From a candidate division FCPU426 bacterium (lineage in GTDB: Bacteria; Oederibacteriota; Muellerivitia; Muellerivitales; Muellerivitaceae): DNA of 64,000 nt. A model generated the notes under the pieces. The model did not search any database, was not told the DNA's origin, and worked only from the letters and a program-made list of their open reading frames with translations. The position numbers and the translations under genes were made by a program. The DNA lies in assembly GCA_963796105.1 (NCBI GenBank), contig CAWCKJ010000004.1, positions 512,001 to 576,000 of the forward strand. Direction: 5' to 3'. Within the stretch, counting starts at the first letter, position 1. The number at the start of each line of letters is the position of its first letter. Shown one piece after another: positions 40,182 through 64,000 of this stretch.

Positions 40182-40222
40182 GATTACCTCAAGCAAAAAT
40201 TCTCAAAATGAGGACCGATCCG

Positions 40223-40780: not shown

Positions 40781-40808
40781 ACAAAGCGGTTAATCACCCG
40801 GTCCATTC

Positions 40809-42119: not shown

Positions 42120-42161
42120 TGCTTCCTCCCAAAACGATTCTTCTCAAACGGGCTTTTTGTT

Positions 42162-43787: not shown

Positions 43788-43789
43788 TT

Positions 43790-45079: not shown

Positions 45080-45110
45080 CTCTCCAATGATAAGAAATCA
45101 TTCCGGATTT

Positions 45111-45602: not shown

Positions 45603-45613
45603 ATCGACCCCTG

Positions 45614-45648
45614 AATTTAAAATTCAACATTTAAAATTTAAAATTCGA
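45614..45648. repeat. Five AT-rich heptamer repeats (AATTTAA-like) between nuoD and nuoE
   Basis: AATTTAA AATTCAA CATTTAA AATTTAA AATTCGA. Confidence 0.75.
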
Positions 45649-45664
45649 GCTTGATCATTTCCTT

Positions 45665-46912: not shown

Positions 46913-47448
46913 CGGAACCCCTTGGCCCTGAGGCGCGAATCCATCTCATCCATCAGGGATTCGTTGTTGGAAAGCGATTGGCGTTTAGTGATGGGATAGT
47001 CCTTGCGCAGGGGATGCCCCACGAACTCATGGTGGTTCAGGATGCGCTTCAAGTTGGGATGGCCCGTGAAGCGCACGCCCATCTGGTCGAAAGCTTCCCT
47101 CTCCAGCCTTTCCGCGTTGGCGAATAGCGGGACCAGGGACGGGACGGAAGGATCGTCCTCCGGTACCAGGACCTTCAATTGGAGGCGGTGCTTCTGGGTA
47201 ACGGATTTGAATAGGTAGGCCAAGCCAAATCTCTCCACTTCCCATCCGGGAAAGGCTGAATAGTCGATGGAAACCAGGTCCACGAGCATATCCATATGCA
47301 AATTGGCGTTGTCCCGGAGGGTTTTCACCACATCCCCAAGACTATTCCGGTCCACTTGGATTTCCAGGAATCCGTAGCGGTCTTGTGAGCCCAGAATGGC
47401 GTCCGGATGTTTCCGTTGGAGTTTTTCAAGGATCAAAATATTTTCCAT
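46909..47448 (-). CDS. nuoC: NADH-quinone oxidoreductase subunit C
   Basis: ERE.FD..G..F.GHP...GHPLRKDYP. Confidence 0.93.
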   Translation of the reverse strand: MENILILEKLQRKHPDAILGSQDRYGFLEIQVDRNSLGDVVKTLRDNANLHMDMLVDLVSIDYSAFPGWEVERFGLAYLFKSVTQKHRLQLKVLVPEDDPSVPSLVPLFANAERLEREAFDQMGVRFTGHPNLKRILNHHEFVGHPLRKDYPITKRQSLSNNESLMDEMDSRLRAKGFR

Positions 47449-47544
47449 TGAATAACGAAACCTTTCCCTTGGAAGGCTGACTATCAAACATTAAAGAAAC
47501 TAACTGCGCATCGTCATTTTGCCGTGATTCACCCCGTGCAAAAA

Positions 47545-48048
47545 TCAGTAATCAAACTTCGGTTCTTTCACCTGGAACTGGGCTTGAGGGGTAGTCTTAG
47601 AGTTGGCGATCTTGTGTTGGAGTTTCATCACGGCTTCCAGGATGGCCTCTGGCCGGGGGGGACAGCCGGAAATGTAAACATCCACCGGTATCACCTGGTC
47701 GATCCCCTGAACGGTGCAGTAGTTGTTGTAAAACCCGCCGGAGGAGGCGCAAACTCCCATCGAAACAACCCACTTGGGATCAGACATTTGCTCATATACT
47801 TGTTTGAGAATTGGCGCCTGCTTGAAGGTGACGGTGCCTGCGACTAGGAGCAAGTCAGCTTGGCGGGGGGAAAACCGGATAAGTTCGGCCCCGAAGCGGG
47901 AGAGATCGAACACCGAGGCCGCCACGCTCATGAACTCAATGGCGCAGCAGGCGGTGCCGAAAGCCATGGGCCAAAGTGAGTTTTTCCGGCCCCAATCGGC
48001 CACCGCGTCCAGGCGGGTCGTGATAAAAGGAATTTCTTCTATTCCCAA
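47545..48048 (-). CDS. nuoB: NADH-quinone oxidoreductase subunit B
   Basis: FGTACCAIE, SPRQAD, MGVCASSGG, GCPPRPE; likely TTG start at 48048 overlapping the end of nuoA. Confidence 0.93.
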   Translation of the reverse strand: MGIEEIPFITTRLDAVADWGRKNSLWPMAFGTACCAIEFMSVAASVFDLSRFGAELIRFSPRQADLLLVAGTVTFKQAPILKQVYEQMSDPKWVVSMGVCASSGGFYNNYCTVQGIDQVIPVDVYISGCPPRPEAILEAVMKLQHKIANSKTTPQAQFQVKEPKFDY

Positions 48049-48416
48049 TCCAGCGCCCCCCTTTTCAGGAGGTAAAACCAGCCGAAAGCCAGCACCCCTA
48101 GGAATCCCATCATGGAAAAGAACCCGCCCCAGGCAAGCTTTTGGAAGACCGCCGCCCAGGGAAAAAGAAACACGATTTCCACGTCGAAAACCAGGAAACA
48201 CATGGCGACCAGGTAGAATTTGACGTTGAACCGATAGCGGGCGTCGCCCGCCTGGCCTGGGGGTTGAATTCCGCATTCATAAGTGGAGAGCTTGGCTTGA
48301 TTGGGGTTGCGGGGCCCTAATAGGAGGGAGACGAGAAGCATGCCAGCGGGAACCAAGAGGGCAAGCGCGAAGGCCAAAACAAATGGGTATAAATTCTCCA
48401 TAAACCCGGAATTCAT
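48039..48416 (-). CDS. nuoA: NADH-quinone oxidoreductase subunit A
   Basis: YECG, FLVFDVE, terminal GALDWE. Confidence 0.93.
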   Translation of the reverse strand: MNSGFMENLYPFVLAFALALLVPAGMLLVSLLLGPRNPNQAKLSTYECGIQPPGQAGDARYRFNVKFYLVAMCFLVFDVEIVFLFPWAAVFQKLAWGGFFSMMGFLGVLAFGWFYLLKRGALDWE

Positions 48417-48484
48417 CGCGCTCCCCCCTGTTCCCAACACGTTCCCGCCTATTTTCCGCATAAAAGCCGGGACGTAAACAACGA

Positions 48485-48514
48485 ATTATAGGTTTTTCAT
48501 GGATAAAGGGTCAA
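48485..48514 (-). promoter_or_regulatory. Sigma70 promoter of the nuo operon, TTGACC-N18-TATAAT
   Basis: Near-consensus hexamers about 70 nt upstream of nuoA. Confidence 0.65.
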
Positions 48515-48631
48515 TGTGGGGCTGGTAATAAAACCTACATGAGACCATGGGAATGGACAAAAGCGATGGGATTTAAACAGAGGTGAATTGGTTCAAAGAC
48601 CTATGTGTTTGCGTTTTAAGGGTTTAATCAC

Positions 48632-49186
48632 TTAAATGAAAGAATAGCCCACCAGGAATGTAAGGGTTCCATTCTGAAGATTGGCTTTATTCTCAACGTT
48701 TTGAAGGCCCAATTCATACCGCCCGCTGATGATCAATTTGTCGAAATCCAGTTCCACCCCGCCGATCAAGCCTGTGTCAAAGCTGTTCACACCGCTCAGG
48801 TTATTGGAAAGTACATTCTCGCTGAAAGCCGGTCCCAGGAGGATGGCCGGGTTGACGACGGGGGTTCCGAGTGAAAGCTTCACGAGAATTGGAACTTCCA
48901 GGTAATCCAATTCGCTGGTAGTGGACTCCCCCGCGATCTTGGCCCCTTTTTGCTCATATAAAATCTCAGGCCTAATGGAGAAATTGTTGCCGAAGTTCAA
49001 GCCCAAAAACCCGCCCCCGGCAAAACCCAAACGGGAGTCGGTTAATTTTGTTTTGGAAACATCATCCCCGATGAAATTGGCGAAATTCGCCCCAGCTTCC
49101 AGTCCCAAGTTGAAGGTCTGGGCCGAAGCCCGGCAAACCAATAAACCTGCAATTAAAAAAGCCGTGGTCATAATTCTCAATTTCAT
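48632..49186 (-). CDS. Outer-membrane beta-barrel (porin-family / PorT-like) protein
   Basis: Signal peptide ending ASA; amphipathic strands (IRPEILYEQKG, LDYLEVPILVK); terminal GYSFI; RBS AAGGAG. Confidence 0.82.
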   Translation of the reverse strand: MKLRIMTTAFLIAGLLVCRASAQTFNLGLEAGANFANFIGDDVSKTKLTDSRLGFAGGGFLGLNFGNNFSIRPEILYEQKGAKIAGESTTSELDYLEVPILVKLSLGTPVVNPAILLGPAFSENVLSNNLSGVNSFDTGLIGGVELDFDKLIISGRYELGLQNVENKANLQNGTLTFLVGYSFI

Positions 49187-49219
49187 TCTCTTTCTCCTTT
49201 GATCCTTTAGTGGCATACC

Positions 49220-49250
49220 CATTAGACGTGCCAACGAAAAGGAAGGTTTC
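49220..49250 (-). promoter_or_regulatory. ECF-sigma-type promoter GAAACC-N16-CGTCTAATG
   Basis: Same motif and spacing as 11304-11334. Confidence 0.55.
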
Positions 49251-49255
49251 TCCAC

Positions 49256-50701
49256 TTATTTGGCTTTCTTGGACCACTCAGTATGCAGGAAACCCATCTC
49301 CGGATGGTCCGTCCTCTGGTAGGTATGGGCCCCGAAGAAATCCCTTTGGGCCTGGGTGAGGTTCTGGGGCAGATCCGCCGTTCGGTAGCTGTCGAAATAG
49401 GCCAAGCTGGCGCCCATGGCGGGAACCGGGATTCCCAGGGACACTGCCGTTGATACCACCTTGCGCCAGCTTCCCTGGGTGGATTCCACTTGTTTCCTGA
49501 ATGAGTCGTCCAAAAGAAGCGAGGGAAGGTTGGGATCGCGGTCATAGGCCTTCATGATCTCGTCCAAAAGCCTCGCGCGGATGATACAGCCCCCCTTCCA
49601 AATGCGGGCCATTTCCTTGAGGTTGACGTTCCAATGGTACTCGTCCGAGGCCGCCTTGATGAGGCGCATGCCCTGGGTGTAGGAGCATATCTTGGAATCG
49701 TACAAGGCGTCCCGGACCGCGTCGATGAGTTCCTGCTTGGCCGGCTTATCGGACGATATCCCCGTGCCCTTGATTTTCGTGGAAACCTTGACCCTCTCTT
49801 CTTTCATGGAGGATAAGGACCTCGCGTCGATGGCCGCGGCGATGGTGGGAATGGGAACTCCCAGGTCTAGGGCGATCTGGACGGTCCACTTCCCCGTGCC
49901 CTTTTGTCCCGCCTTGTCCAACACCATGTCCACCAGGGGATTGTCCGTCTCGTCATCCTTCACGGTGAAAACTTTGGCGGTAAGCTCGATCAGGAAGGAA
50001 TCCAGCAGGCCCTTGTTCCATCCCGCGAAAATTTCCCCCAGTTCCCGTGCCTTCAAGCCCAGGCCTTTGCGGAGGATGTCGTAAGCCTCGGCGATCAACT
50101 GCATATCGCCGTACTCGATGCCGTTGTGGACCATCTTGACGAAATGGCCCGCCCCGTCCGGGCCCACGTGGGTCACGCAGGGCCCGGAGTCGGTCTTGGC
50201 GGAGATGGCCTCGAACACGGGCCGCACGAATTCGTAGGCCTTGGGGCTTCCCCCCGGCATGATGGAGGGCCCGAAGCGCGCCCCTTCCTCTCCCCCCGAA
50301 ACGCCCGCCCCGAAGAAAAAGAAACCCTCCCGGGTCAATTCCGCCTCCCGGCGCTGGGTGTCCTTGAACCAGGAATTGCCCCCGTCAATGACGATATCCC
50401 CTTTGGAAAGGAGGGGTTTCAACTTCTGGATAGTTTCATCCACCGGATCCCCGGCCTTGATCATGAGCATCACGCGCCGGGGAGGTTTCAAGGATTTCAC
50501 GAATTCCTCCAGGGAATAGGCGCCGATGAATTTTTTTCCGGGATACTTTTTCATAAAGGGGTTGACCCGGTCGCTGTGATGGTTGTACACCGCCACGCTG
50601 AAACCGTGGTCCTCGATGTTCAGGGCCAGGTTCTCCCCCATGACCGCGATCCCCAGGACGCCAAAATCCGCCTGTTTCAATGGTTGATCCTGTGACGCCA
50701 T
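49256..50701 (-). CDS. gnd: 6-phosphogluconate dehydrogenase, decarboxylating
   Basis: GIAVMGENL, GVSGGEEGA, KMVHNGIEYGDMQ, QAQRDFFGAHTY. Confidence 0.96.
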   Translation of the reverse strand: MASQDQPLKQADFGVLGIAVMGENLALNIEDHGFSVAVYNHHSDRVNPFMKKYPGKKFIGAYSLEEFVKSLKPPRRVMLMIKAGDPVDETIQKLKPLLSKGDIVIDGGNSWFKDTQRREAELTREGFFFFGAGVSGGEEGARFGPSIMPGGSPKAYEFVRPVFEAISAKTDSGPCVTHVGPDGAGHFVKMVHNGIEYGDMQLIAEAYDILRKGLGLKARELGEIFAGWNKGLLDSFLIELTAKVFTVKDDETDNPLVDMVLDKAGQKGTGKWTVQIALDLGVPIPTIAAAIDARSLSSMKEERVKVSTKIKGTGISSDKPAKQELIDAVRDALYDSKICSYTQGMRLIKAASDEYHWNVNLKEMARIWKGGCIIRARLLDEIMKAYDRDPNLPSLLLDDSFRKQVESTQGSWRKVVSTAVSLGIPVPAMGASLAYFDSYRTADLPQNLTQAQRDFFGAHTYQRTDHPEMGFLHTEWSKKAK

Positions 50702-50828
50702 AGCCTGTCCTCCCTTAGTTGTATCGTGCGCGGCATTTTAGCATGAAGGTAATCCGAAAACCGAAAGCCCAGCGGGCTATAATAATAAAACCTTCCCGCG
50801 CCGATTCGGGACTATCGGGAGCGAGTGA

Positions 50829-52910
50829 TTGTTGAAAATCTCCTCAAGTTTGGGCCCTTTAAACCTTTTTATCCTTTATTTGCTCTTGCTGGTGACTTAC
50901 GGAATTTGGCTCGCTCACGGGCTTCCGTTCCATATCGATACCCTCGTTTACGACTACCCAGAGCGGTCCTTAAATCTGCAAAACCTCCAGGAGGGCTGGA
51001 TTCCCTTATGGAATCCTTATATTTCCTGCGGCATACCGCATCTGGCCAATTGGCAATCCGCTGTCTTTTATCCCCCCTATTGGCTCCTGCGCTTTACGGG
51101 AGTTCAACAAGGCTTGGTCTGGATCGCCCTCCTTCATTGCGCCTGGGCTTACGCCGGTTTTTACCTCTGGGCCCGCTCCCAAAAAGTTTCAACCTGGGTC
51201 AGCGCCTTGGGCGCGCTCTCTTTCGCGGGGTCGGCCCATCTCACTCTTTGCTGGGTCAATCTTCACTTCATCTCGACCGCGATCTGGATACCCTGGGCTT
51301 TTTACTCCATCCACCTGGTCCTTCGTGAGAAACAATGGCGGTGGATGTTGGCGGCGGCCGGAGTCATCAGCTTCCAATTGTTGGCGGGATATCCCCTATT
51401 TGTTTTCTATACCTGGCTGTCCCTCACGGTTTGGCTGGCGTTTCAAAAAATTCACTTCCAGGATTGGGTTCGGATCAAACTGGTCTTTGTCATTGCGTTG
51501 GCCTTTACCTCCTTCCAATGGCTTCCATTCCTGGAATTCCTGACTTACGCCAAAAGAGGGGGCTGGGACCTTTATCCCTACTACACCCATGGCCGGGAAT
51601 TCCTGACGCTTCTTCAACCGCGCCTCCTGGGATTTCCCGGTTCCAACTCCTACCAAGCCAACCCCGCCAATTCCATCTATGGTGATCTCTATTTCGGGCT
51701 GATTCCCCTTATGCTCTGGGCCGCCAGCCTCATCTGGAAAAGAAAGGGGTTTTCTCTTTGGGGTTGGTCTGCCCTCGCCGGGTTGGCTTGGCTGGCTGGA
51801 CCTTATTTCCCGCTTCTGGGATTCGTTCCGGCAAAAGCCCTGGAACTTTTGGAGCCTTCCAAGGCCGTGTCGGTCTTTTTGTTCACCGCCTGTACCGCCG
51901 CCTGTCTTTCAGCGGATGGCTTCGTTTCCGGTTTCAAGAAAAGCCCTTTAATCCGGATGGGTTTGGGCCTGGCGGCTCTTCTTTGGGTGGTGGACATGGG
52001 GCGGCTTCCCTTTGAGCTGGTTTTGAAAACGCCGGATTATTTCGGGGATGCAACCATAGGACAAAACGCTCAAAAACTTCGGCAATGGGCGGAGGACAAA
52101 AGGATGCTCGCGATTCAATCCCCGGACCGGTTAACGGCGGGAGGCGGGAAATTAAAGGATGTGCTCGGCGGCGAACTATTGGGCTCCTGTGTAAAAAACT
52201 TCCTTCCCAACACCAATGCGGTTTGGGGTATCCGATCCCCCAGTTCCTACCTCTCGCTCTATACCGACAGCTCCCTCAATCTGGATAAATACGCCGCCAA
52301 GGGTTTTCCATTTCTAGGGGATCTTTTGGATATCGCGGGGGTCCGGTTGTTTCTCCTACCCCAGAGCTTGCCTCGCTCAAAATTCAAGGACCTGGGGTTT
52401 TGGGCCGGAAACACCTTGAGCCTGAATCCCCGCGCGTCCGAGGACATGAGGTGGGTTCCAATGGCTTCGGGATATCCCAGCCGGCCTGAAATCCTGAATA
52501 TCCTGGCCAAACCCAACAGCGGGTGGGAAAAGAAGGTTTACCTTGAAAAAAATAACGACGGAACCAGCGTTCAACTCGAACCGGTCAATCGCGCGGGAAT
52601 TTTCCCCGCGGTGAAGGATTACCAACGCCCTTGCGCTTCCCGGGCTTCTGTGGGCGTACCGGAATGTAATAATGGTTTTTTGGTTTTCAACGAGAGTTTT
52701 GCGCCCGGGTGGCACGCCTGGGTAGATGGAAAACCCACTCCCATCTTGAGAGCCTACGGATTGTTCATGGCGGTTCAGGTGATGAATGGATCACAACAGG
52801 TGGATTTCCGTTTTGAGCCAGTTTCCTTCCGTTTGGGGTTTTTTATTACCTTGGCTACCTATTTTGTTCTATTGTCCTCATTGGGTATCAGGAATTTTTT
52901 AAATGATTAA
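50829..52910 (+). CDS. YfhO-family GT-C membrane protein
   Basis: PLWNPY..CG.P..AN.Q..VFYP; C-terminal LVFNESFAPGWHAWVDG...V.FRFEP. Confidence 0.85.
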   Translation: MLKISSSLGPLNLFILYLLLLVTYGIWLAHGLPFHIDTLVYDYPERSLNLQNLQEGWIPLWNPYISCGIPHLANWQSAVFYPPYWLLRFTGVQQGLVWIALLHCAWAYAGFYLWARSQKVSTWVSALGALSFAGSAHLTLCWVNLHFISTAIWIPWAFYSIHLVLREKQWRWMLAAAGVISFQLLAGYPLFVFYTWLSLTVWLAFQKIHFQDWVRIKLVFVIALAFTSFQWLPFLEFLTYAKRGGWDLYPYYTHGREFLTLLQPRLLGFPGSNSYQANPANSIYGDLYFGLIPLMLWAASLIWKRKGFSLWGWSALAGLAWLAGPYFPLLGFVPAKALELLEPSKAVSVFLFTACTAACLSADGFVSGFKKSPLIRMGLGLAALLWVVDMGRLPFELVLKTPDYFGDATIGQNAQKLRQWAEDKRMLAIQSPDRLTAGGGKLKDVLGGELLGSCVKNFLPNTNAVWGIRSPSSYLSLYTDSSLNLDKYAAKGFPFLGDLLDIAGVRLFLLPQSLPRSKFKDLGFWAGNTLSLNPRASEDMRWVPMASGYPSRPEILNILAKPNSGWEKKVYLEKNNDGTSVQLEPVNRAGIFPAVKDYQRPCASRASVGVPECNNGFLVFNESFAPGWHAWVDGKPTPILRAYGLFMAVQVMNGSQQVDFRFEPVSFRLGFFITLATYFVLLSSLGIRNFLND

Positions 52911-52918
52911 TTTTAAAT

Positions 52919-53923
52919 TTAAGGTAACTGATCCGGGACGAGGTCCACTTCTTTCAAGGCGGCTTTCAACCCTCCCGCCACATCCTTGGGGACATCCAAG
53001 GCCCAGAAATCCAAGAAGAAAAGCCTGGGGCTTTCCTGAACCAGCCTGTGATGGATGGCCGTCACGGTGATCCGATTCTGGGACAAGGCTTCCATGACAG
53101 GTTCCAACTCATCGGTTGTCAGGACGAATTCCCCGGCCGCGGCCAGAAGTTTCCCCTTTTGTTGAAATTGAATCGTAATGGCCGTACCCATCAAAGGAGG
53201 GATTTCTTCCCCATCCTCCTCAATCGCGTCCGCCCGGGCAAAATGGTATTTCAAAAGCCCGCCATCCTCCTCCCCCGCGCCCAAGCGGGTCTTGACCATA
53301 TCCCAAATCTTTTTTGATGGAGCGCTATTCACTTGCGAGGACGCCGGAAGGGGTTTTCCCTCAGGGGTTGGGGGCGTTACCGTCGGAAGAGGGTTTGAAA
53401 CCTGTGAAACGGGGGTCCCGGTGTGATAAAGGGCTTCCCGGAGCGTTTCCGCCAGTTGGGATCTTGGCCCGTGGGCGGTGAAAGAGAGGCTTTCCAAGGC
53501 CGGGGATTCATGCAAAAGGGGATGGGAGAGGTCCGTCACTTGGAAGCCGTGGCGGATCAGGGTCAGGATGACTTTCGGAACCTCCTGGTCCAGCAACACC
53601 AGGTTACCCACCAAGAGGGTCCCTTTGAGTGGCTTTTTCGAAGTCCCTTTTTCGCCTTCAACCTTGTCCGGTGTGTTTGCCAAAGCCTTTTTGCCGCTGA
53701 TGGGTTTAAAGGAAAACCAGCTGGCGGTGGCCAGGCCTGGGTCCACCGATACGCCTGATACCAGCACATTCAAGTCAGTCCGGGGAATGGAGACCCTCAG
53801 GATTTCCCCCTCCGCCACCCCTGAGCGTCCCAGGATCTTCTCAACCGACTGCCACTCGGAACAAACCCCCGGGGAGGAACAAAGAACCCAGCCGAGAAGG
53901 GTAAACGGGATCCAGTTTTTCAT
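52919..53923 (-). CDS. DUF1259 (LppY/LpqO-like) double-domain secreted protein
   Basis: Two repeats of G.LVL...E...V...L...G..VT...H....E.P; signal peptide. Confidence 0.8.
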   Translation of the reverse strand: MKNWIPFTLLGWVLCSSPGVCSEWQSVEKILGRSGVAEGEILRVSIPRTDLNVLVSGVSVDPGLATASWFSFKPISGKKALANTPDKVEGEKGTSKKPLKGTLLVGNLVLLDQEVPKVILTLIRHGFQVTDLSHPLLHESPALESLSFTAHGPRSQLAETLREALYHTGTPVSQVSNPLPTVTPPTPEGKPLPASSQVNSAPSKKIWDMVKTRLGAGEEDGGLLKYHFARADAIEEDGEEIPPLMGTAITIQFQQKGKLLAAAGEFVLTTDELEPVMEALSQNRITVTAIHHRLVQESPRLFFLDFWALDVPKDVAGGLKAALKEVDLVPDQLP

Positions 53924-54216
53924 CGAGTCCTCCCGCCAAAATTGACAACTGAATGTAAACTTCGGGTAAAATTTCCCCGGTGTCTTGGCCTGGATACCAA
54001 CTGAAGTATATCCTCCCTCACGGCTGGCGTGCCTTCATTTAAAGAACTTTTTTCTTTTCCATCAGCTCTCTCAGGCTTATGATTTTCAAGAGATTTTGAT
54101 CTTTTCAATTTCAAAAAGGCGGACGCCCATTCCGGCGTCACCCGCCAATCAATCTGGGCCCAAAAGGGTTATGCGGCAGGACCCATCTCAAACCGGCGGA
54201 AAAAGGCCTCTGAGCC

Positions 54217-56005
54217 ATGGAACATAAAAATACAAACACCGGCAAAGGCCCTTATTCCATCGGGAAAATCTGGGGGGAGGCCACTTCCTTCCTCACCCGC
54301 TACCATAAGATCTGGTGGATCGACCTCTCCCTGCTTCTGGGTTTGATCGGCCTGATCTTCGGGATCATGAACGTGGCCGGCGAGTGGACCGGCGTGCACC
54401 GGCCCACCGTGGAGATCGACCTGTCCCCCTGGGCCCTTCCCAAGTACACCTTCTTTTCCCTCTGCCGGGGACTTTTGGCCTACATCATCTCCCTGGTTTT
54501 CACGATCGCCTACGGCTATTGGGCGGCGAAGGACCATGTGGCTGAAAAGGTGCTCATTCCCATGCTGGATATCCTGCAAAGCATTCCGGTCCTGGGTTTC
54601 ATGCCGGGGCTGGTCCTGGCCCTCATGGCCATTTTCCCTGACAGCAACATCGGCCTGGAATTGGCGGCGGTCATCATGATCTTCACGGGCCAGGCCTGGA
54701 ACATGACCTTCAGTTTCTACCAGTCGCTCCGGTCCATCCCGCAGTACCTGCTGGAAGCCGCGGCCGTTTACAAGTTCAACTGGCTCCAGAAATCCCTCAA
54801 GCTGGAGCTTCCCTTCTCGGCCATTGGACTCATCTGGAATAGCATGATGAGCATGGCGGGCGGCTGGTTCTTCCTCACCGTCAGCGAGGCCTTCCAGTTG
54901 GGGGACAAGGATTTCCGCCTCCCCGGCCTGGGTTCCTACATGAGCGTGGCCAACGACAAGGGCGACGGCTGGGCCAAACTTTGGGGCATCATCGCCATGG
55001 TTTTAATGATTGTTTTCCTGGACCAGTTCCTCTGGCGGCCCCTGGTGGTTTGGGGGCAGAAATTCCGGGTGGAGGAAGGGGCCCAGGAGGAAAACATGAA
55101 ATCTTGGTTCCTGGAATTCCTCGAGCGTTCCGAGATCATCCATTTTATCGGGCGCCTGTTCCGGCGCAGACCCAAAACAACCGACGCGGTTCCAGCCCCG
55201 GACAGGCTCCGGGCCGAGCCCGCCATGCCGCCGACTCCGGGGGCTCCCAACAAACTCATGAAAACAGTCTCGGTGTTGGCTTTCACTTCGCTGGTGGGAA
55301 TCATGTTATTCGGCGCTTGGAAAATCATCCTTCTTTTCTCCCAGGTTCACCTGGAGCAATGGAGCCTCATCCTAGGGGAGGCCTCCGCGAGTCTGGGGCG
55401 GGTCCTGACGGCGGTGGGACTTTCCGCGCTTTGGGCGATCCCTATCGGGCTTTGGATCGGGCTTTCCCCCCGTCTCTCCCGCGTGGCCCAGCCCTTCGTG
55501 CAGGTGGCGGCGTCCTTTCCCGCGCCCATGCTTTTTTCCTACGTCATCATCGTCTTGAAATTCATGGGGATCTCCTTGAATTGGGGGAGCCATCGCGCTC
55601 ATGATCCTGGGAGCCCAGTGGTATATTCTTTTTAACGTGGTGGCGGGAGCCATGGCCATCCCCTCGGACCTGTTGGAGGCGGCCCGCATGTACCGCATGA
55701 GGGGATGGGACCTGTTCTGGAAAGTTAAAATGCCGGGCATTTTCCCTTACCTGGTCACTGGCATGGTCACCTCAGCCGGCGGCACTTGGAACGCCAGTAT
55801 CGTGGCGGAGTACGTGACGGACAAGGGGAAAACCTTGACGGCCTACGGCCTGGGTTCCCAGATCAGCATCGCGGCAAGCAAATCAGACCTTCCCATGCTG
55901 GCAGCCAGCGTTGTGGTCATGTCGTTGATGGTGGTGACTTTCAACCGCCTGGTTTGGAAGCGGCTTTACCGTCTGGCGGAGGAGAAGTACTCGCTTAGCA
56001 AGTAA
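54217..56005 (+). pseudogene. NitT/TauT-family ABC permease (double domain) with a +1 frameshift near 55590 (real lesion or sequencing error)
   Basis: LDILQSIPVLGF, QAWNMTFSFYQS. Removing one C in AGCCATC restores NWGSIALMILGAQWYILFN and joins ORFs 54217 and 55601. Confidence 0.85.
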
Positions 56006-56008
56006 CTC

Positions 56009-56131
56009 CGAAGTTGCGTTAGCAACTTCGAATTATTAGTTTTGAATTTTAAGTTTTAAATGTTGGAAAGATTTCCGGTGTTCGGAAATCCTCAATAATT
56101 TAGAATTCAAAATTAATCATTTAAAATTTGT
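56009..56131. repeat. Intra-operon palindromic element: two hairpins plus oppositely oriented heptamer arrays
   Basis: CGAAGTTGC-GTTA-GCAACTTCG (56009-56030); GATTTCCG-N5-CGGAAATC (56070-56090) flanked by AATTYAA-like arrays. Confidence 0.7.
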
Positions 56132-56147
56132 TCGCGGGGGGGTTTTT

Positions 56148-57656
56148 ATGGCGGTAAACATCGCGGAAGTCCAGGCCAAGCAGAAACTCATCGAGGTCAA
56201 GAACGTCAGCCAGGAATTCTCTCTCCCCAACGGAAAGTCCCTGAAAGTCCTGGAAAACATCGATTTGTTCGTGAATTCCAGGGAGGTCGTGACCTTCCTG
56301 GGACCATCCGGCTGCGGCAAATCCACGCTCCTTCGCATCCTGGCAGGCTTGATCCCCCCCACGAAGGGCCAGGTCTTCTACCACGACCGCCCCTTGAACG
56401 GCTTGAACACCGGGGTTTCCATCGTATTCCAGAGTTTCGCGCTCTTCCCCTGGATGACCGTCATGGAGAACATCCAGACAGCCCTGAAGTCCCGCGGATT
56501 TCCCGCTGGGGAGATCGACGACCGGGCCCAAAAAGCCGTCCACATGGTGGGTCTGGCCGGATTCGAGGATACCTATCCCCGGGAATTGTCCGGCGGGATG
56601 AAACAGCGCGTCGGCATCGCCCGGGCCTTGTCGGTGGACCCGGAAATCCTCTTCATGGATGAGCCCTTCAGCCACGTGGACGCCCTGACGGCCGAGTCAC
56701 TGAGGGCGGAAGTCATCGACATTTGGGCCGCCCAGGACCGCAACCCCTCCTCCATCCTCATGGTCAGCCACGACATCCCCGAGGTGGTTTACATGGCCGA
56801 CCGGATCGTTCTACTCTCCGCCAACCCGGGAAGGCTCGTGAAAATCGTCGAGAATCCCCTTCCCCGGCCCCGGGATTACCGTTCCCCCGACTTCAACCGC
56901 CTGGTCGAGCAATTGCATGAAATCATCACGGGCCATGAGATTCCCGACGAGCCCCAGATGGAACTCATCCCCAACGTGATGCCCCCGGCCGAGTCCCTTC
57001 CCGACACCATTCCGGGGGAAATCGTGGGCGTTCTGGAATACCTGGACGCCCGCGAAGGCAAGGAGGACGTGTTCCGGATCGCCGCGGAAACCGACAAGGA
57101 ATTCGGCTCCGTCATCAAGGCCGTCAAGGCTGCGGAGCTACTGGATTTCGTGGACACGCCCAAGCGCATGGTGGTGTTGACGCCCGACGGACAGCGTTTC
57201 ATGAAGGCCACGAGCCAGGAGAGGCAGAACATCTGGAAGGAACAGCTCCTGAAACTCAGGCTTTTCAAGCAGGTGAACGACATGCTCTCCAAGCATCCCC
57301 GCATGAAACTGGACGCGGAGCTGGTGCAGGAGGTCATTATTCTCAACCTGCCAGCGGAGAACTACGAGAAAACTTTCGAGACATTCGTGCAATGGGCCAT
57401 GTACGGGAACCTTTTCGCCTATGACGAGGACACCCAGAAGCTTTTCTTCCCCCGCAAACGGCCCTCCAGGTCAAAGCCGAAGGGGGAACCTAAACAGGCC
57501 GTCAACGGAAAAGCTTCCGAGGTCCGGGCGGATGCCCAGCCATCCTCAAGCCAGCCGTTAAACGGGGAGGCTTCAAAAACCGGCGCGCCTCCCGCTCCGG
57601 AAACGGCCGCCGCCGAGACCCCCTCTTCCAGCGAATCCAACCCGCCCATGGCCTGA
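56148..57656 (+). CDS. NitT/TauT-family ABC ATPase with C-terminal AAA-associated domain
   Basis: [26 protein letters not shown]; long C-terminal extension. Confidence 0.92.
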
Positions 57657-57755
57657 GCCGCCGCAAGCGGGCTCTTCCCGCGGTGAAAATCGTTTTTTTT
57701 AACCGTGACGGTGCTAAACTGTCGGCGTTTTCAACCTTCTTTTGAAAGGGGATCT

Positions 57756-58409
57756 ATGGAATTCCTGCACCAAGCCTTGGATTTCTTCCTGCACCTGGAC
57801 AAGCACCTCGCGGAGATCGTCCAAACCTACGGCAGCCTGACTTATGGCATCCTTTTCGGGGTGATTTTCTGCGAGACGGGCCTGGTGGTGACGCCTTTCC
57901 TGCCGGGGGATTCCCTTCTTTTCGCGGCGGGCGCCTTGACGGCGGCGGGAGTCATGCCCCTGCCCGCCTGGGCCGTTTACGTCATGCTGACCTTCGCGGC
58001 GCTTCTGGGGGACAACAGCAACTACTGGATCGGCCGGACTGTTCCGAACCTATTCAACAAGTTCATCAACAAAAAATACCTGGCCCAAACCCATGAGTTC
58101 TACGAAAAACACGGGGTCCTGACGCTCGTCATCGCCCAGTTCGTGCCCATCATCCGCACCTTCGCGCCCTTCGTGGCGGGCATCGGGGACATGACCTACG
58201 GGAAATTCCTGCGTTTCAACTTCTTGGGGGTCTTCCTTTGGACGACGCTATTCACCTGGACGGGATATTTCTTCGGGAACCTGGAATTCGTGAAGGCCAA
58301 CTTTCACTACGTCATCCTGGGCATCATCGTTGTTTCGGTGATCCCCATCTTGATTGAACTGGCCAAGCAATTCCGCGGTAAAACCGAGCGGCCCTCCCGA
58401 AAGAGATAA
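57756..58409 (+). CDS. dedA: DedA-family (VTT domain) membrane protein
   Basis: FCETGLVVTPFLPGDSLLFAAG, FVPIIRTFAPFVAG. Confidence 0.9.
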   Translation: MEFLHQALDFFLHLDKHLAEIVQTYGSLTYGILFGVIFCETGLVVTPFLPGDSLLFAAGALTAAGVMPLPAWAVYVMLTFAALLGDNSNYWIGRTVPNLFNKFINKKYLAQTHEFYEKHGVLTLVIAQFVPIIRTFAPFVAGIGDMTYGKFLRFNFLGVFLWTTLFTWTGYFFGNLEFVKANFHYVILGIIVVSVIPILIELAKQFRGKTERPSRKR

Positions 58410-58438: not shown

Positions 58439-60472
58439 TTACTGGGCCGGGGCCGGCTGGACTTTTTGGACGACCATATCGCTCTCGATCCCATTGACAT
58501 CGACCGCGGTGACCGCGAAATAATAGGTTTTGCCGTTCTTCAACGGCTTTAAAAGCGCCTTCAGGACGGTTTGGGGGGCCTTGGTCAGCCGCCGGAACCC
58601 CGACCCATCATCCGAAACATAAAGGTGATATCCCGCCGCGCCGTCCACGGCGTTCCAGGTCAGTTTCGCGGACCCATCCCCCGGCTCCACCTTGAATTGG
58701 GTGACAATCGAAAGTTTAGCGGGAGGGGCCGGCGTCGGGGTGGGAACGGGTTGTTTCGGAGGGGCGGCAAGCCTCACTTCCAGGGACTGGCTCAAGCCGC
58801 TCTCCGAGCCGTCGGAGCCGACGATCGAAACCGCGAACAGGTACAACTTTCCGGTATTGAGTTTCTTCAGGACGACTTTGGTTTCCGTGACCGCGCGGGC
58901 CGTCAATTTCTGGGGAGGCTTACCTGGATCCCCCAGGAGATAGAGGTTATAACCCGCCGGATTTCCAGTGGTGGGCTTGCTCCATTCCAGTTGAACCCCT
59001 TCCCCCGCCGGGGATGCTTTGAGACCCGAGGGCGGCGTTAGGGCCGCGACAGCCGCGGCGCCCGCCGTGACCGTCAGCTTGGACATGGCGCTTTCCCGTC
59101 CAGCGGCGCTCACCGAGACCACCCCAAAGGCGTATTCCTGGCCGTTCTTGAGGTTCTTGAGTTTGAGGGTGGTTTCCCTGATGGGCCTTGTAGTCAGTCG
59201 GACATAGGCCTGGGTTCCCGGTTTTTTCAGGTAGAGCTGGTACCCCAGCAGGTCCTTTTGCTGGATGGGATTCCAGGAGAGGACGATCTCCCGGTCGAGA
59301 GGCCTGGCCTGCAGACCCGCCGGGGCCGGAAGTCCCGAGGCCCCTTCCGCCCCGAAGCGGAAGATCATGGAGAACCGGTGGGTGCTTCCCAAGGTGCTTA
59401 ACGGCGTGAAGGCGTAGTCAAACTGGAGGAATTTGAGGTTCACCCCCATCCCGGCGGTCGGGTTCTGCTGGTCGCTGTTCCCCGCGAAACCCGCGCGCAA
59501 GGCGAGGGTCTTGTCGTACCAATATTCCGCCCCCACTGCCCCGGAATAGGCCTGGGCCCCGAACTGGTAGGAGTTGTCCAGGGCGAAAAGAAGGGTGTGC
59601 CTGGGGGTCTCCACCACCTTGCAGGCCAATCCCAGCCGCCCCAAGGTGGGCAGGGAGTCCGCCTCCGAGACGAACTTGACCTGCTGTCCCACGTTGAAGA
59701 CGCCCGCGCCGACGCTGAAGCCGCTCCCCGGAGTGAGCAAAACCCCGAAGTCGCCCCCCATGGCCTGGGCGTTGAAGCCCGCGATGTTCCGGAAGATGTA
59801 TTTGCCGGTGACCCCGAAGGAAATCAGGTCCTTGATCCGGAAGGCGAAGGAGGCCGAAAGATCGTTGTCCCCGGCCGAGACTGAGGGGGCAAGGCCGTTG
59901 GTGCTGTCGAAGGGCGGGACCCCCAGGTTGACGAAGCCGATCCCCACGCCGAAGGTGTTCTCGCCCGCGGGGAGGGGCAGCGCGATTCCGCCGAAGTTGT
60001 AGGCGATGTCGCTCAAGTAAAGCATGTGCAGGTAGCCGACCTCAGGGTGCTCCAGGAGGGCCAGGCCCGCCGGGTTCCAGGTCAGCGCGTTGACGTCGTC
60101 GGCCACCGCCGTGAAGGCCCCGCCCATTCCCTGGCTCCTGGCGCCCGCGTCGATCCCCAGGAAATCCGCGCCGCTAGTGAGTTGCTGCGCCTGCGCCCTG
60201 TTCCCCGAATAAAAAATAGGCACTATCACCACAGAGACACATGCCACCCACCTTATAAGATGAAAAGAAGGTGGTATAGTCCCGCATTTCCTAAATAAGT
60301 ACTTGAAAAGATGCGCGGGACAGAGACACAGCAAGCGGCAGATTTTTCTAAAAGGGGAACCGATTGCCCCCTTGGCCTGTTCCCGGATTTTACAATATTT
60401 CGAATTTATATTTTTTTCCTTTTTTTTCACTGTGTCTCTGAGTCCCTGTGGTGAAAAATTTTTTCTGATCAT
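58439..60472 (-). CDS. PorV/UPF0164-family outer-membrane barrel fused to three fibronectin type III domains
   Basis: GADFLGIDAGARSQGMGGAFTAVADDVNALTWNPAGL...THRFSMIFRFG, then three L.W...GY.LY...L.L..G..Y.F.V repeats. Confidence 0.85.
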   Translation of the reverse strand: MIRKNFSPQGLRDTVKKKEKNINSKYCKIREQAKGAIGSPFRKICRLLCLCPAHLFKYLFRKCGTIPPSFHLIRWVACVSVVIVPIFYSGNRAQAQQLTSGADFLGIDAGARSQGMGGAFTAVADDVNALTWNPAGLALLEHPEVGYLHMLYLSDIAYNFGGIALPLPAGENTFGVGIGFVNLGVPPFDSTNGLAPSVSAGDNDLSASFAFRIKDLISFGVTGKYIFRNIAGFNAQAMGGDFGVLLTPGSGFSVGAGVFNVGQQVKFVSEADSLPTLGRLGLACKVVETPRHTLLFALDNSYQFGAQAYSGAVGAEYWYDKTLALRAGFAGNSDQQNPTAGMGVNLKFLQFDYAFTPLSTLGSTHRFSMIFRFGAEGASGLPAPAGLQARPLDREIVLSWNPIQQKDLLGYQLYLKKPGTQAYVRLTTRPIRETTLKLKNLKNGQEYAFGVVSVSAAGRESAMSKLTVTAGAAAVAALTPPSGLKASPAGEGVQLEWSKPTTGNPAGYNLYLLGDPGKPPQKLTARAVTETKVVLKKLNTGKLYLFAVSIVGSDGSESGLSQSLEVRLAAPPKQPVPTPTPAPPAKLSIVTQFKVEPGDGSAKLTWNAVDGAAGYHLYVSDDGSGFRRLTKAPQTVLKALLKPLKNGKTYYFAVTAVDVNGIESDMVVQKVQPAPAQ
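60226..60454. repeat. CACCACAGAGACAC-family REP-like repeats inside the 5' end of the PorV-like ORF
   Basis: Copies at 60226-60241 and 60320-60331, with an inverted copy at 60430-60454. Confidence 0.65.
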
Positions 60473-63400
60473 TTAACAACAGCGACTTTCAGGATCTGGT
60501 GGTAAGAGCCGGACTTGATCTCAATCAAATATATTCCCGAGGCCACGACATTGCCGTTTTTATCCTTCATGTCCCAGGATGTTTTGACCTGCGCTCCCGC
60601 GACGGCGGCAGGAGGCGAAAGCGTGCGGATCACCCTTCCCGCGATGTTATAGATGTTCAATTCCACGGGCCCGCTCGCGGCAAGATCGTAGTAAATACCC
60701 AGAGTCTGCCCTAACAGAGGCCGGACCAGGTTGGCGTCGAAGACCATTTGGCCTGATTTCACTCCCGGCGGCGGCGCGGGGGGCTTGAGGGTGGTGGAGT
60801 AGGCGTGGTTGGAATTGGAGCTGGTGCCGGAGGGCACGGAATATACCGCCCTGGCCACGTAGAAATAGGTGACGTTTTCGCTCAAACCCGTGTCGTTGAA
60901 AAGGGTGACGGCGGCGAAAGCGGTGTTGTAAAGGGTCGTCACCGGCGCGGTCAGAGTCGCGCTGTAGGAAGTGGTCCTATAGATCGCGTAACCCGACACG
61001 ATCCGGCCCAGGTCGTTGGCCGGAGTCCAGGTGAGCTGGATGGTATTGGCAGTGGTCCCCTTGGCGGTCAGGCCCGTGGGGGGATTGAGGTTGCCGGTGA
61101 CGCTGGAGGATGTGATGGTCACGGCGCCGCTCTCGTGGATGCCGGGAACAGCCTGGCCCGTGGAATCGATGGCCGCCACCGTGAAGGTGACCGAAACCCC
61201 GTTGGTCGAGGGTTCCAAAAGCCATGTTTGCGTCGTCAGGATGGTGGTCGGTGCCCCGCCGGAAGTAATGATGACCTGGTACTCGGAAACGGGCAGTCCT
61301 CCTGCGGAGGGCGCCCCGGCTGGGGCCCAATCGATGAGGATCTGCTGGTCCCCTGGCTGGGCGTTCAAGCCCGTCGGTGCGGGAGGGGGGTTGGCGGGGC
61401 CGTCCAGGACTTCGGCGGAAAGCTGTCCCGCGTGTCCCACCGCGTCCAGGGCCTCCACCTCATAGCCGTAAAGCTGGCCTAAGGAGGCGGTGGTGTCCAC
61501 ATAGATTGAAACTCCGGAGCCCACCACCGTAAGGGGCTCCGTCAGGTTGTAGGTTCCCGCGGCGGTCCGCCGGTAAATGGCGTAGCCGGTGATGTTGAAG
61601 GAATGGGTGGCCGGGGCCGACCAGGTAAGGGTCACGTCCGCGTTGCTGGAAGTCGAGGTGACGGCGGGAGGGCCCAGGGCGTAGGGATAACCCGTCACGG
61701 GAGACGAGGGGCTCAAGCTTGTGACTCCGTTGGTGTTCACGGCATAGACCTGGTACACGAAAGTGGAACCGTCGGCGGCGGGGGTGTCCACGTCGGTCAC
61801 CGGGATATTCGCCGCGGTCACGGCGCTGTTGACAGTGGTCAAGGGGGCTGAGTTTCGGGTGATCAAGTACTCTAGCACGTTCACCTTGTCCAGCGGGCCG
61901 TTGGTGACCCAACGCAGGGTGACCGCGTTGTCGCCGTCGGATTCGCCCAGGCTGACGGGGGCGTTGGGCGGCCTGGCGGGCGTGGCGAAGACAGTGGCGC
62001 TTCCGCTGAGGCAGTAGGTCCCCAGGTGGTCGATGGAAACAAGGTAATAATAATAAGTAGTCCCGTTCGTCACGGGGGCATCGGTGAATGATCCTCCGAG
62101 GCCCACGATCGTGAGGGCGGCATAACCGCTGAATTGGGCCGTGCTTCGATATAGTTGATAGCCAGTCACTGGCGAGGCACCACCCGCGGCGTCCGTCCAG
62201 GAGACCGCCACCTGGGCGACACCGCCAGTGGCCGAAAGGTTGCTGGGTTGGTTAATATTGTTCGTGCTTGGAGTGTTCGTGACAGACGCGGAATTGGCGC
62301 TGATATGGAGCCCACTGGTGATTCCGGAGTTGTCAACCGCCACCAGGTAATAAGTGTAGCTGATAGTGTTCGTCAAACCCGTGACGACATAACCCGTAGT
62401 GGTGGAACTGACCATGGTTACTGGCGTTGTCACACCGCCGCTGACCTGGTAAATCTGGTACCCGCCGATGGGAAGGGTTCCCGCCGTCCCTGGCAGCCAG
62501 GTGATCTGGATTTCAGTGTCCCCGGCGTATATTCCCACGCTCACAGGGGCTCCGGGCTGGACGAGGGGTTCTGCCGTGACAGGCGCCGTCGGGGCGCTTA
62601 GGTTTCCTTTCATGTCCACGGTTTGCAAGGAATAGTAGTAGTTTGTTCCGTTCGTGACGGCATTATCAGTGTAACCCGCGGCCGAGGCTGGAAGGAACGT
62701 GATCGGTGCTCCTGTCACACCGGCAGATGTGACGCGGAAGACGTCGTATCCGGAAACAGGATAGGTGGTGGCGGCAGGGTCGGACCAGGCCAGGACCACC
62801 TGGTTGCTCGCGGGAGTCGCGGAAGGGGAACCTGGCGCGTTGGGAAGGCGGAAGGCCGTGACCGGCATGGCCAGGTTGGTATTCAGGGGGCTCTGGAGGC
62901 CTCCCAGCTCGGCTTCCACCATGTAATAGTAGGCTGTCCCGTCCGCCGCTGTGGCATCCACGAAACTGGTTCCCAAGGAGGAGACGCTGGTGATAGGGGT
63001 GTAAGCGGTGGAAGCGGGTCCGCTTCCGGTGACCGGCCCGGGAGCGCGGTAGATGTTGTAGCCTGTGATGGCCTGAATGGCGGGGTTGGGGGCCCAGGCC
63101 AGGCTGACCAAAGGCTGGCTGGTGCTGGTGCCGGACTGGGCGGTCAAGCTGGCCGGAGAGGAAGGCCCGATCAGGATGGACAAGGGAGCCGATCGGGGGC
63201 CCTCGCCCGTGGCGTTGGAGGCGGAAATCTGGAAAGTATAGGTCTGGCCGTTTTGGACCGGCCATTGGAAGGTGATGGGCATGGCAAATCCCGCCGTGAC
63301 CGTCACGGGCTGGACCAGGATGGATTGGTTGGAGTTCAATTGGCGGTAGATGTTGTAAACGGTCACGTCGCCGGTTCCCACGGTGACCCAGTTCAAGGCC

Positions 63401-64000
63401 ACCGAGACATCGTCGGGCAGGAGGTTGACGGAGTTCAACACGGGCGCCGAGGGATAGGTGAGCTGGCTCACGGGCCCGTCGAGAGCGCTGGTCCCGAACG
63501 CGTTCAAGGTTTGAAGCCAGTAATAATAGGTTGTATCCCCCGCCTGGGTCGGGTAACCCAGGGAAACAGACGCGCTGGATAAAACGTTGGTTACGGCGGA
63601 AGACGCGCTGGAGGTGGTGGCCGCAAGGGAATAAATACCCGTGACGCTCGCGTCCGCGATGGCGGGCCAGGTGACTGCCATGTCATTTTGGGCGTCGAGG
63701 AGGCTGACCGCCAAGCCAGCGGGGGTCTGGGGGGCCAATCCCCAAGTGACAGCCGCCGAGGGAAGGCTTTCCCCACCCACGATGGTTAATCCGCTTCCAA
63801 AATTGGTAGCGGTGACATAATAGGCGTAGCTGACGCCCTGGGATGCGGAATTGTCTGAGAGGCTATTGAACCCACCATTCGGTGTCGTAGATATCAATTG
63901 AGTTACGGGTGTCGTAAGGGGGTTGTTGATCCGGTAAAGCGAGTATTCTTTCACGTTCTCCGAAGCGGGATTGAGGGTCCAAATGACCGTAATGACACTG
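60469..64000 (-). CDS. Large Thr/Ser-rich fibronectin type III repeat surface protein with FlgD-Ig/T9SS-like C-terminal domain (5' end outside the window)
   Basis: Frame is open to 64000; at least 11 FN3-like units (L.W...GY..YR...D.....G..YYY.V); ends IYNIAGRVIRTL...WDMKDKNGNVVASGIYLI...KVAVVK. Confidence 0.9.
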   Translation of the reverse strand, partial: SVITVIWTLNPASENVKEYSLYRINNPLTTPVTQLISTTPNGGFNSLSDNSASQGVSYAYYVTATNFGSGLTIVGGESLPSAAVTWGLAPQTPAGLAVSLLDAQNDMAVTWPAIADASVTGIYSLAATTSSASSAVTNVLSSASVSLGYPTQAGDTTYYYWLQTLNAFGTSALDGPVSQLTYPSAPVLNSVNLLPDDVSVALNWVTVGTGDVTVYNIYRQLNSNQSILVQPVTVTAGFAMPITFQWPVQNGQTYTFQISASNATGEGPRSAPLSILIGPSSPASLTAQSGTSTSQPLVSLAWAPNPAIQAITGYNIYRAPGPVTGSGPASTAYTPITSVSSLGTSFVDATAADGTAYYYMVEAELGGLQSPLNTNLAMPVTAFRLPNAPGSPSATPASNQVVLAWSDPAATTYPVSGYDVFRVTSAGVTGAPITFLPASAAGYTDNAVTNGTNYYYSLQTVDMKGNLSAPTAPVTAEPLVQPGAPVSVGIYAGDTEIQITWLPGTAGTLPIGGYQIYQVSGGVTTPVTMVSSTTTGYVVTGLTNTISYTYYLVAVDNSGITSGLHISANSASVTNTPSTNNINQPSNLSATGGVAQVAVSWTDAAGGASPVTGYQLYRSTAQFSGYAALTIVGLGGSFTDAPVTNGTTYYYYLVSIDHLGTYCLSGSATVFATPARPPNAPVSLGESDGDNAVTLRWVTNGPLDKVNVLEYLITRNSAPLTTVNSAVTAANIPVTDVDTPAADGSTFVYQVYAVNTNGVTSLSPSSPVTGYPYALGPPAVTSTSSNADVTLTWSAPATHSFNITGYAIYRRTAAGTYNLTEPLTVVGSGVSIYVDTTASLGQLYGYEVEALDAVGHAGQLSAEVLDGPANPPPAPTGLNAQPGDQQILIDWAPAGAPSAGGLPVSEYQVIITSGGAPTTILTTQTWLLEPSTNGVSVTFTVAAIDSTGQAVPGIHESGAVTITSSSVTGNLNPPTGLTAKGTTANTIQLTWTPANDLGRIVSGYAIYRTTSYSATLTAPVTTLYNTAFAAVTLFNDTGLSENVTYFYVARAVYSVPSGTSSNSNHAYSTTLKPPAPPPGVKSGQMVFDANLVRPLLGQTLGIYYDLAASGPVELNIYNIAGRVIRTLSPPAAVAGAQVKTSWDMKDKNGNVVASGIYLIEIKSGSYHQILKVAVVK

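Follow-up and report, generated by a model that had tools for sequence, protein, structure and literature searches.

In a 64,000-nucleotide window of a candidate division FCPU426 genome (GenBank assembly GCA_963796105.1, contig CAWCKJ010000004.1, positions 512,001 to 576,000), we analyzed two overlapping minus-strand genes. One encodes a giant protein of FN3 repeats that ends in a sorting-type C-terminal domain (CTD), hereafter the cargo, and the other a PorV/PorQ-family outer-membrane barrel with three FN3 domains at its own C-terminus. We consider it likely that the barrel carries this FN3 giant alone and then anchors it lastingly at the surface, in a system that resembles type IX secretion (the T9SS) and has a SprA homologue and no detectable GldL, GldM or GldN.

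The barrel-FN3 fusion and its probable cargo

The barrel gene (58439..60472; 677 amino acids (aa) counted from the overlapping ATG) was delineated by its open reading frame (ORF), Pfam and NF033709 matches and a structure model. Its product matched the PorV/PorQ family model NF033709 with 165.8 bits (cut-off 90) over residues 99-373, and Pfam recognized three fn3 stretches (78.7 bits) in addition to a UPF0164 match (32.2 bits). Scores fell below the equivalog cut-offs for PorV (NF033710, 71.4 against 250), PorQ (NF033711, 83.5 against 220) and PorV2 (NF052325, 72.7 against 325). The cargo stop codon (TGA, 60471-60469) overlaps the barrel ATG (60472-60470) as ATGA (60469..60472, minus strand). 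An earlier note on this DNA had described a giant FN3 gene with a FlgD-Ig- or CTD-like end, whose stop overlaps the ATG of a PorV-like gene carrying three C-terminal FN3 domains; the ORFs, the hidden Markov model (HMM) matches and the ATGA bear this description out.

An AlphaFold2 model of the barrel protein, built from 76 sequences (mean confidence, pLDDT, 91.8), comprised an N-terminal hatch, 14 strands (mature residues 50-278) and three FN3 domains, the hatch and barrel being encoded at 59348..60190 (minus strand). In a PDB profile search, PorV (6h3i_F, E 1.4e-32) was the only barrel in the best 60 of 92 matches. Structural alignment likewise placed the PorV of F. johnsoniae first (Z 34.4, root-mean-square deviation (rmsd) 3.0, 279 aligned residues), followed by FadL/TodX proteins (Z 27-31; 28-31 for FadL) and BamG (26.4). 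This shared fold class, together with the NPA hatch motif of the barrel and a weak match to Pfam Toluene_X, would suit a small-molecule channel of the FadL type, or a scaffold like BamG, that binds no CTD, and the relevant passages of PMC8407342 interpret tailed Treponema UPF0164 barrels as nutrient transporters. We judge a channel or scaffold very unlikely, since PorV is the better match in both sequence and fold, Toluene_X stays under its cut-off (23 vs 29.7 bits), and the barrel is strictly linked to a CTD gene and has a predicted CTD interface. A FadL-type barrel without such an interface was the counter-case raised by the earlier note, and these results point away from it. Judged from sequence, the PorV-FN3 fusion is a genuine family, with 52 further clusters, out of 7,994 candidates scored, that are 45-73% identical over no less than 96% of the length.

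The tail consists of FN3 domains encoded at 59057..59332 (basic, isoelectric point (pI) 10.1), 58763..59038 (pI 9.4) and 58442..58708 (pI 9.0), all on the minus strand, the last preceded by a flexible Pro-rich linker. It is basic in 50 of 51 orthologues; the repeats of the cargo have a pI near 4. OmpA domains bind peptidoglycan. According to Pfam, the 17 paralogues in the genome of the window (G000, 96.8% complete) end in an OmpA domain in three cases, in TPRs in at least four and in fn3 in three; five are tail-less, one of which has the top family score of the genome. Since the strand number is even, the chain exits the barrel on the side where strand 1 begins, and this geometry, the OmpA domains at the same position in three of the 17 paralogues and a predicted CTD site on the opposite face all indicate that the FN3 tail is periplasmic, which answers the question of its side posed in the earlier note. 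The C-terminal domains of related Treponema barrels have also been placed in the periplasm, in the part of PMC8407342 that deals with them.

The window contains the 3' part of the cargo gene (60469..64000, minus strand, residues 1019-2194). Its ORF is open at the window edge, and the full gene of 2,194 aa (G000:C4:572469-579053) runs about 3 kilobases (kb) further, to window-equivalent position 67053. By eye, the protein has a Sec-type leader. Its 470-aa head matched no Pfam family and no PDB sequence, and its acidic, Ser/Thr-rich FN3 repeats number about 16 by motif spacing, with six stretches passing Pfam. An Atlas search with residues ~440-920 returned FN3 clusters only (0.83-0.84), which we take as a lead. 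The cargo ends in the CTD (60472..60771, minus strand), which matched Pfam FlgD_ig with 36.6 bits (cut-off 27). A model of the last 100 residues is a seven-strand Ig sandwich (pLDDT 96) with a conserved Lys near its end; a wide fold search ranked the CTD of PorU first (Z 11.7, rmsd 2.6, 95 aligned) and that of PorZ third (10.4), and Foldseek ranked PorZ first. Within the cargo, conservation is highest in the CTD (mean 49% versus 14-37% elsewhere, figures partly depressed by truncated rows), whose Lys95 is nearly invariant. Neither the cargo nor the barrel matched TIGR04131 or PF11751. In two relatives, G058 and G051 (L144:8854-14873, L146:5258-11895), the cargo orthologue is split into two ORFs, by frameshift or assembly error, next to an intact barrel gene.

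The predicted complex of barrel and CTD, modelling that the earlier note had proposed, scored 0.92, and the best of three controls 0.01; the mark it passed is reached by 116 of 157 solved complexes and by 2 of 215 mismatched pairs. Three runs agreed in at least 98% of contacts, with a partner pLDDT of at least 89. The CTD is predicted to touch the loops after strands 1, 3, 5, 7, 11 and 13 as well as the N-terminal tail, opposite the C-terminus and the FN3 tail, and its Lys95 contacts barrel residues 94 and 96. In the F. johnsoniae complexes described in PMC10994853, a conserved Lys of type A CTDs similarly touches PorV. Conservation across 51 orthologues was 73% at interface positions, 63% in the rest of the barrel and 40% in the tail. 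As a model result, the pass shows likeness to solved complexes, not binding or specificity.

The genome encodes 18 PorV-family ORFs, 16 of them over the cut-off, and 121 ORFs ending in a CTD-like domain (iterated HMM; a few doubtful). The HMM places eight of the 18 directly after a CTD-ending gene, and inspection by eye adds a ninth, an adjacency that exceeds chance (binomial p ~1e-8, with the gene total estimated at 4,300). A CTD gene stands just upstream of the barrel in all 15 close orthologous loci, and among 20 more distant PorV-FN3 loci it is directly upstream in 17, missing in one, and two are uninformative. Barrel orthologues (E<1e-140) were found in 15 of the 32 genomes of the order, and these are exactly the 15 that have cargo orthologues (E<1e-60); genera g3 and g17 each include genomes with and without the pair; G069 was scored as lacking both genes, its contig ending in an apparent cargo start. 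Eight genomes without the pair have the upstream pilin gene followed by the gene that elsewhere follows the barrel. Given 122 CTDs to choose from, all 14 close orthologous CTDs chose that of this cargo. At the sequence level, co-occurrence and CTD choice show joint inheritance. Gene order and joint presence and absence, including the count of CTD-PorV pairs that the earlier note had suggested making, support its idea of a dedicated cargo-shuttle pair.

Alternatively, the barrel might serve many of the CTD proteins exported by the same SprA system, its tie to this cargo being one of co-expression only. About 112 of the 121 CTD-like proteins have no adjacent barrel and so must share carriers, one PorV serves all type A CTDs in Bacteroidota according to the passages of PMC12618676 on that class, and the complex prediction covered the cognate CTD and three controls rather than the other CTDs of the genome. 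However, barrel and cargo are co-present or co-absent in 32 of 32 genomes, and the five tail-less paralogues, one with the best family score, are candidates for the general role. A general carrier therefore appears unlikely.

Several relatives of the barrel and its tail lie elsewhere in the genome. A free-standing 312-aa protein (L203; G000:C3:663632-664570) has two domains that are 30-40% identical to the FN3 tail. Four PorV-family genes (L198, L202, L193, L194; G000:C3:401381-427613), one of them FN3-tailed, are located within or beside a flagellar cluster. At G000:C12:90925-93555, a PorV-TPR gene (L200) is followed by an apparent extracytoplasmic function (ECF) sigma factor and a small protein with a CTD/FlgD-like end, and another small protein (C12:82702-83919) resembles the latter. 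The role of some barrels may be signalling instead of export.

Export components and host lineage

The SprA homologue of this genome (2,020 aa) adjoins lpx and lptFG genes, has an FN3 domain near its N-terminus and scored 207.3 bits against TIGR04189 (cut-off 200). A PDB search with the single sequence was empty and a profile was needed: built from 21 SprA-like proteins, it matched F. johnsoniae SprA (6h3i_A, E 3e-47). SprA matches were found in 92 of the 99 genomes of the phylum and in 58 of the 60 good ones (at least 90% complete). In these 60 genomes, GldM and GldN were each detected in none (controls: 4 of 5 Bacteroidota-type genomes) and GldL in none over the cut-off (one 20-bit match; control 5 of 6), the missed control being the same Balneolales genome each time; very divergent GldL or GldM homologues could still exist. 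Within G000, the matches to GldK were partial and reached 63 bits at best (cut-off 350), the two loci inspected lying in unrelated surroundings; all 48 matches to the PorU model NF033707, a search of this genome run with no positive control, fell within model positions 962-1095, that is, the CTD; and PF11751 had no match. On these results the outer-membrane core is present, and the searches turned up neither the known motor nor the hub or the sortase. The genome search for sprA, porK/L/M/N and porU that the earlier note had outlined therefore returned SprA, with GldL/M/N and PorU undetected and GldK represented by partial matches under its cut-off. The T9SS-related character that the note had proposed is upheld by the SprA match over the cut-off, the PorV-family barrel and the predicted CTD interface.

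Some further observations concern these components. Directly after sprA (region L080:9281-20000, G000:C3:212280-223212) lies a gene for a 1,631-aa FN3-CTD protein, the closest paralogue of the window cargo, and a CTD-type gene follows sprA in most relatives among those listed. The Balneolales control genome (G106, the genome of L047; completeness not shown) likewise has no match to GldL, GldM or GldN, so motor-less states may exist within the wider Bacteroidota group. TonB/ExbBD was considered as the missing motor and found no support: three exbB-like loci, located by motif in G000, adjoin apparent TonB-dependent receptor genes (by eye) and not sprA or PorV genes.

Goldbacteria, Firestonebacteria and Elusimicrobia are usually placed outside the Fibrobacteres-Chlorobi-Bacteroidetes (FCB) group. 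For the RpoB of the host, the nearest named matches were to candidate division FCPU426 (64-65%, residues 500-1000) and then Firestonebacteria, and no Bacteroidota were named in the best 120 matches. We built a tree of 56 RpoB sequences, 51 chosen from the 120 matches and five from Bacteroidota-type genomes, with other FCB phyla absent as named rows; it groups the host lineage with the FCPU426-labelled sequences, a moderately supported join (0.89) that stands far away from the clade of Bacteroidota. A passage of PMC7031533 assigns the FCPU426 16S to Goldbacteria, with Firestonebacteria and Elusimicrobia as neighbours. The matches and the tree support the impression of the earlier note that the host stands outside Bacteroidota. 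With GldL, GldM and GldN undetected as well, the genome does not look like that of a Bacteroidota/FCB member with a canonical T9SS, the other counter-case that the note had considered.

Simplified two-partner export, which the earlier note had also entertained, did not hold up. In two-partner secretion the transporter is an Omp85 barrel of 16 strands that bears POTRA domains. The tight translational coupling and joint loss of the two genes would be in keeping with SprA-independent passage of the cargo across its partner barrel, but this barrel has 14 strands and a hatch-plugged lumen, POTRA is absent from both its model and the Pfam scan, the CTD is predicted on its outer face, and SprA is encoded in the genome and across the phylum. 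Given the SprA homologue and the plugged lumen, we consider such a two-partner route extremely improbable.

In the carrier-and-anchor reading that we favor, Sec would carry the cargo across the inner membrane. The barrel would dock at the side opening of the SprA homologue, with its outer loops and N-terminal tail binding the cargo CTD, and carrier and cargo would then leave SprA sideways. As no PorU sortase was found, the CTD is probably uncut, and the cargo would remain on the barrel as a long stalk displaying its N-terminal head, like PorZ on PorQ. For the FN3 tail the role we favor, tentatively and with some doubt, is to hold the loaded carrier to the cell wall or a wall-bound partner, by analogy with the TPR or OmpA-like peptidoglycan-binding domains that paralogues have in this position.

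A number of results weigh against this reading. For the barrel, FadL lies just 3 Z under PorV in the structural alignment. The CTD scored under the cut-off of TIGR04183 (17.3 vs 23 bits), generic Ig domains come within ~1.5 Z of its best fold match (FlgD 8.6), and its top PDB sequence matches are to flagellar FlgD. The SprA homologue aligns to its family in four pieces only. Similar SprA-PorV-CTD structures have been solved, so the complex pass may reflect the memory of the predictor, and the prediction does not tell whether the barrel would favor the cognate CTD above the 120 others of the genome. Related genomes that share the pair do not count as independent evidence, and outside the close orthologues agreement between CTD and barrel drops to 3 of 14 pairs (overall 17 of 28, one of 29 having been dropped because it has no upstream CTD). 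The tether role of the tail would be based on analogy and basic charge only. Finally, as reported in the part of PMC10994853 on motor function, F. johnsoniae without its motor traps cargo on SprA, and motor-driven extraction of carrier and cargo is the energy-requiring step; a motor-less system accordingly needs a release mechanism, and none was found here.

The pilin cassette and other surroundings

Directly upstream of the cargo, beyond the window, lies a type IV minor-pilin cassette on the minus strand (L081:9930-17948; G000:C4:579426-587447), with genes for 431, 1,233, 724 and 321 aa. The 431- and 1,233-aa products have prepilin motifs, and the other two look like PilX on inspection by eye. 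In 12 of 14 loci a pilin cassette lies directly before the cargo, one of these loci belonging to another family (G078); the cassettes of G078 and G062 are different, and G062 has two. In G000, a motif scan found only this one cassette, and the genome also has a full type IVa pilus locus (pilB, pilT, pilC, pilMNOP, pilQ). The PilW-like gene of the cassette was found in 25 of the 99 phylum genomes. Among 15 further cassette loci, the pair is missing in 11, the cargo is present in three, and one is cut by a contig end. As the cassette persists without the pair in those 11, the pair is an optional passenger of the pilin operon. The plain reading is that pair and cassette share a use in surface attachment; mechanical coupling of the pair to the pilus is possible but unsupported.

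One form of such coupling would place the FN3 giant at or beside the pilus tip, or would let the priming complex and the retraction ATPase pull the periplasmic FN3 tail, replacing GldLM. The recurrent cassette, the complete pilus gene set and the position of the cargo in the usual place of pilY1 favor it. Against it, 11 of the 15 further loci have the cassette and lack the pair, the other eight cargo-barrel pairs of G000 were not seen beside pilin genes, and the other-family PorV-FN3 pairs that could be traced far enough upstream (G096 and G097; most are not traceable) have no pilins. We regard joint action with the pilus as improbable. We give equally little weight to a broader version, in which the whole phylum has a motor-less T9SS-like core and the FN3 tail is here a handle pulled or positioned by the pilus machinery, a filament motor replacing the rotary one.

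The cargo has no PilY1 domain, and the PilY1 family PF05567 was matched in 0 of 31, in a search whose positive control was silent too. As summarized in the passages of PMC12918778 on these proteins, PilY1 supplies a C-terminal strand in trans, and PilY1/PilC tip adhesins end in a beta-propeller. Such a C-terminal propeller was not seen in the cargo, whose end is the Ig-type CTD. The cargo as a PilY1 substitute required by the pilus is weakened by the 11 of 15 loci that have the cassette and no pair. The PilX-like region (L081:14811-17948, L145:1465-3453) consists of two genes here, of 321 aa with a pilin-type start and of 724 aa with a signal-peptide-like start, and of one 663-aa gene in G065. 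By eye and by analogy with PilY1, the 724-aa protein might supply a C-terminal strand in trans.

Counted from the overlapping ATG, the barrel leader (60188..60472, minus strand) has 95 residues, a hydrophobic stretch being followed by a likely signal peptidase I site (by eye). This is unusually long, so the true start is uncertain and may lie further in. The leader region (window 60190-60472) is AT-rich and unconserved, and its length varies from about 25 to 95 aa among relatives. An ATG is found at -4 or -1 in 9 of the 12 orthologous loci that could be parsed (three of 15 were left out), and the closest relative has none at the overlap. A scan for promoters and terminators gave sites no more numerous than in shuffled sequence. 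By eye, the neighbouring part of the window (39678-58409) contains a nuo (NADH dehydrogenase) cluster, gnd, a pair of ATP-binding cassette (ABC) transporter genes and a DedA-family gene, the last convergent on the barrel gene.

Relation to known systems

According to PMC12618676 and PMC5445135 the T9SS occurs in Bacteroidota alone, PMC11205867 confines it to the FCB group, and the text of PMC12611786, taken without its by-phylum SprA tables, calls SprA FCB-specific. The passages of PMC12635249 that treat gliding as ancestral in Bacteroidota make no mention of motor-less systems. In a literature search whose coverage left out most subscription papers, we found no publication on a SprA/PorV system in this phylum. 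What is new here is the FN3-tailed carrier family, the side of its tail, the exact joint loss of the two genes and their link to a pilin cassette.

The occurrence of SprA in 92 of 99 genomes, with GldM and GldN in 0 of 60 and GldL in 0 of 60 over the cut-off, points to a simpler export core and makes the question of its energy source testable. The pair offers a compact test case, namely two genes that come and go together, whose products have a predicted interface and, on the periplasmic side, a defined handle, and the nine cognate pairs of this genome are a ready matrix for how CTDs choose their carriers. Such a system would explain how FCPU426/Goldbacteria, which according to a passage of PMC7031533 include cellulose binders, display many giant surface proteins.

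The system works like the PorV/CTD arm of the T9SS and fails canonical membership on motor, hub, sortase and host. With the PorV and SprA of F. johnsoniae (PDB 6H3I, 8GL6) it shares a 14-strand hatch barrel, a seven-strand CTD with a terminal Lys, predicted binding by the outer loops and a SprA homologue. There, however, a single tail-less PorV serves all type A cargo, whereas here we count 18 paralogues, of which about half come with a cargo of their own and most bear a periplasmic tail; GldL/M/N and PorU were not found, an FN3 domain is present at the N-terminal end of SprA, and the host is no member of Bacteroidota.

The PorQ-PorZ pair of P. gingivalis, as presented in the relevant section of PMC10947112, is similar in that a PorV-family barrel holds one CTD protein whose CTD is uncleaved. 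It differs in that our barrel is under the PorQ cut-off (83.5 vs 220), carries an FN3 tail and has an FN3 stalk protein as its putative cargo rather than PorZ, and no attachment complex was found. Type B cargo and its PorP/SprF shuttles offer a parallel in gene order, with the shuttle directly downstream of its cargo and orphan cargoes sharing a shuttle, as the type B passages of PMC12618676 describe. The PorP-PorE-PG1035 complex, which may tie the type B anchor to peptidoglycan (in the same section of PMC10947112), also resembles the OmpA-tailed paralogues found here. The type B shuttles nevertheless belong to another barrel family (PF11751, unmatched in G000), and the CTD fold in our system is type A-like.

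The Treponema pallidum UPF0164 'FadL-like' proteins TP0548, TP0859 and TP0865 belong to the same Pfam family as the barrel and have a C-terminal domain that the corresponding passages of PMC8407342 place in the periplasm. Their tails are TPR-like and they are read there as nutrient transporters, in contrast to the FN3 tail and adjacent CTD cargo described here; a recent modelling paper labels them PorV/FadL-like in the part that concerns them (PMC13749626). FadL and TodX themselves share the 14-strand barrel, the hatch and the NPA motif with our barrel, all of which PorV has too.

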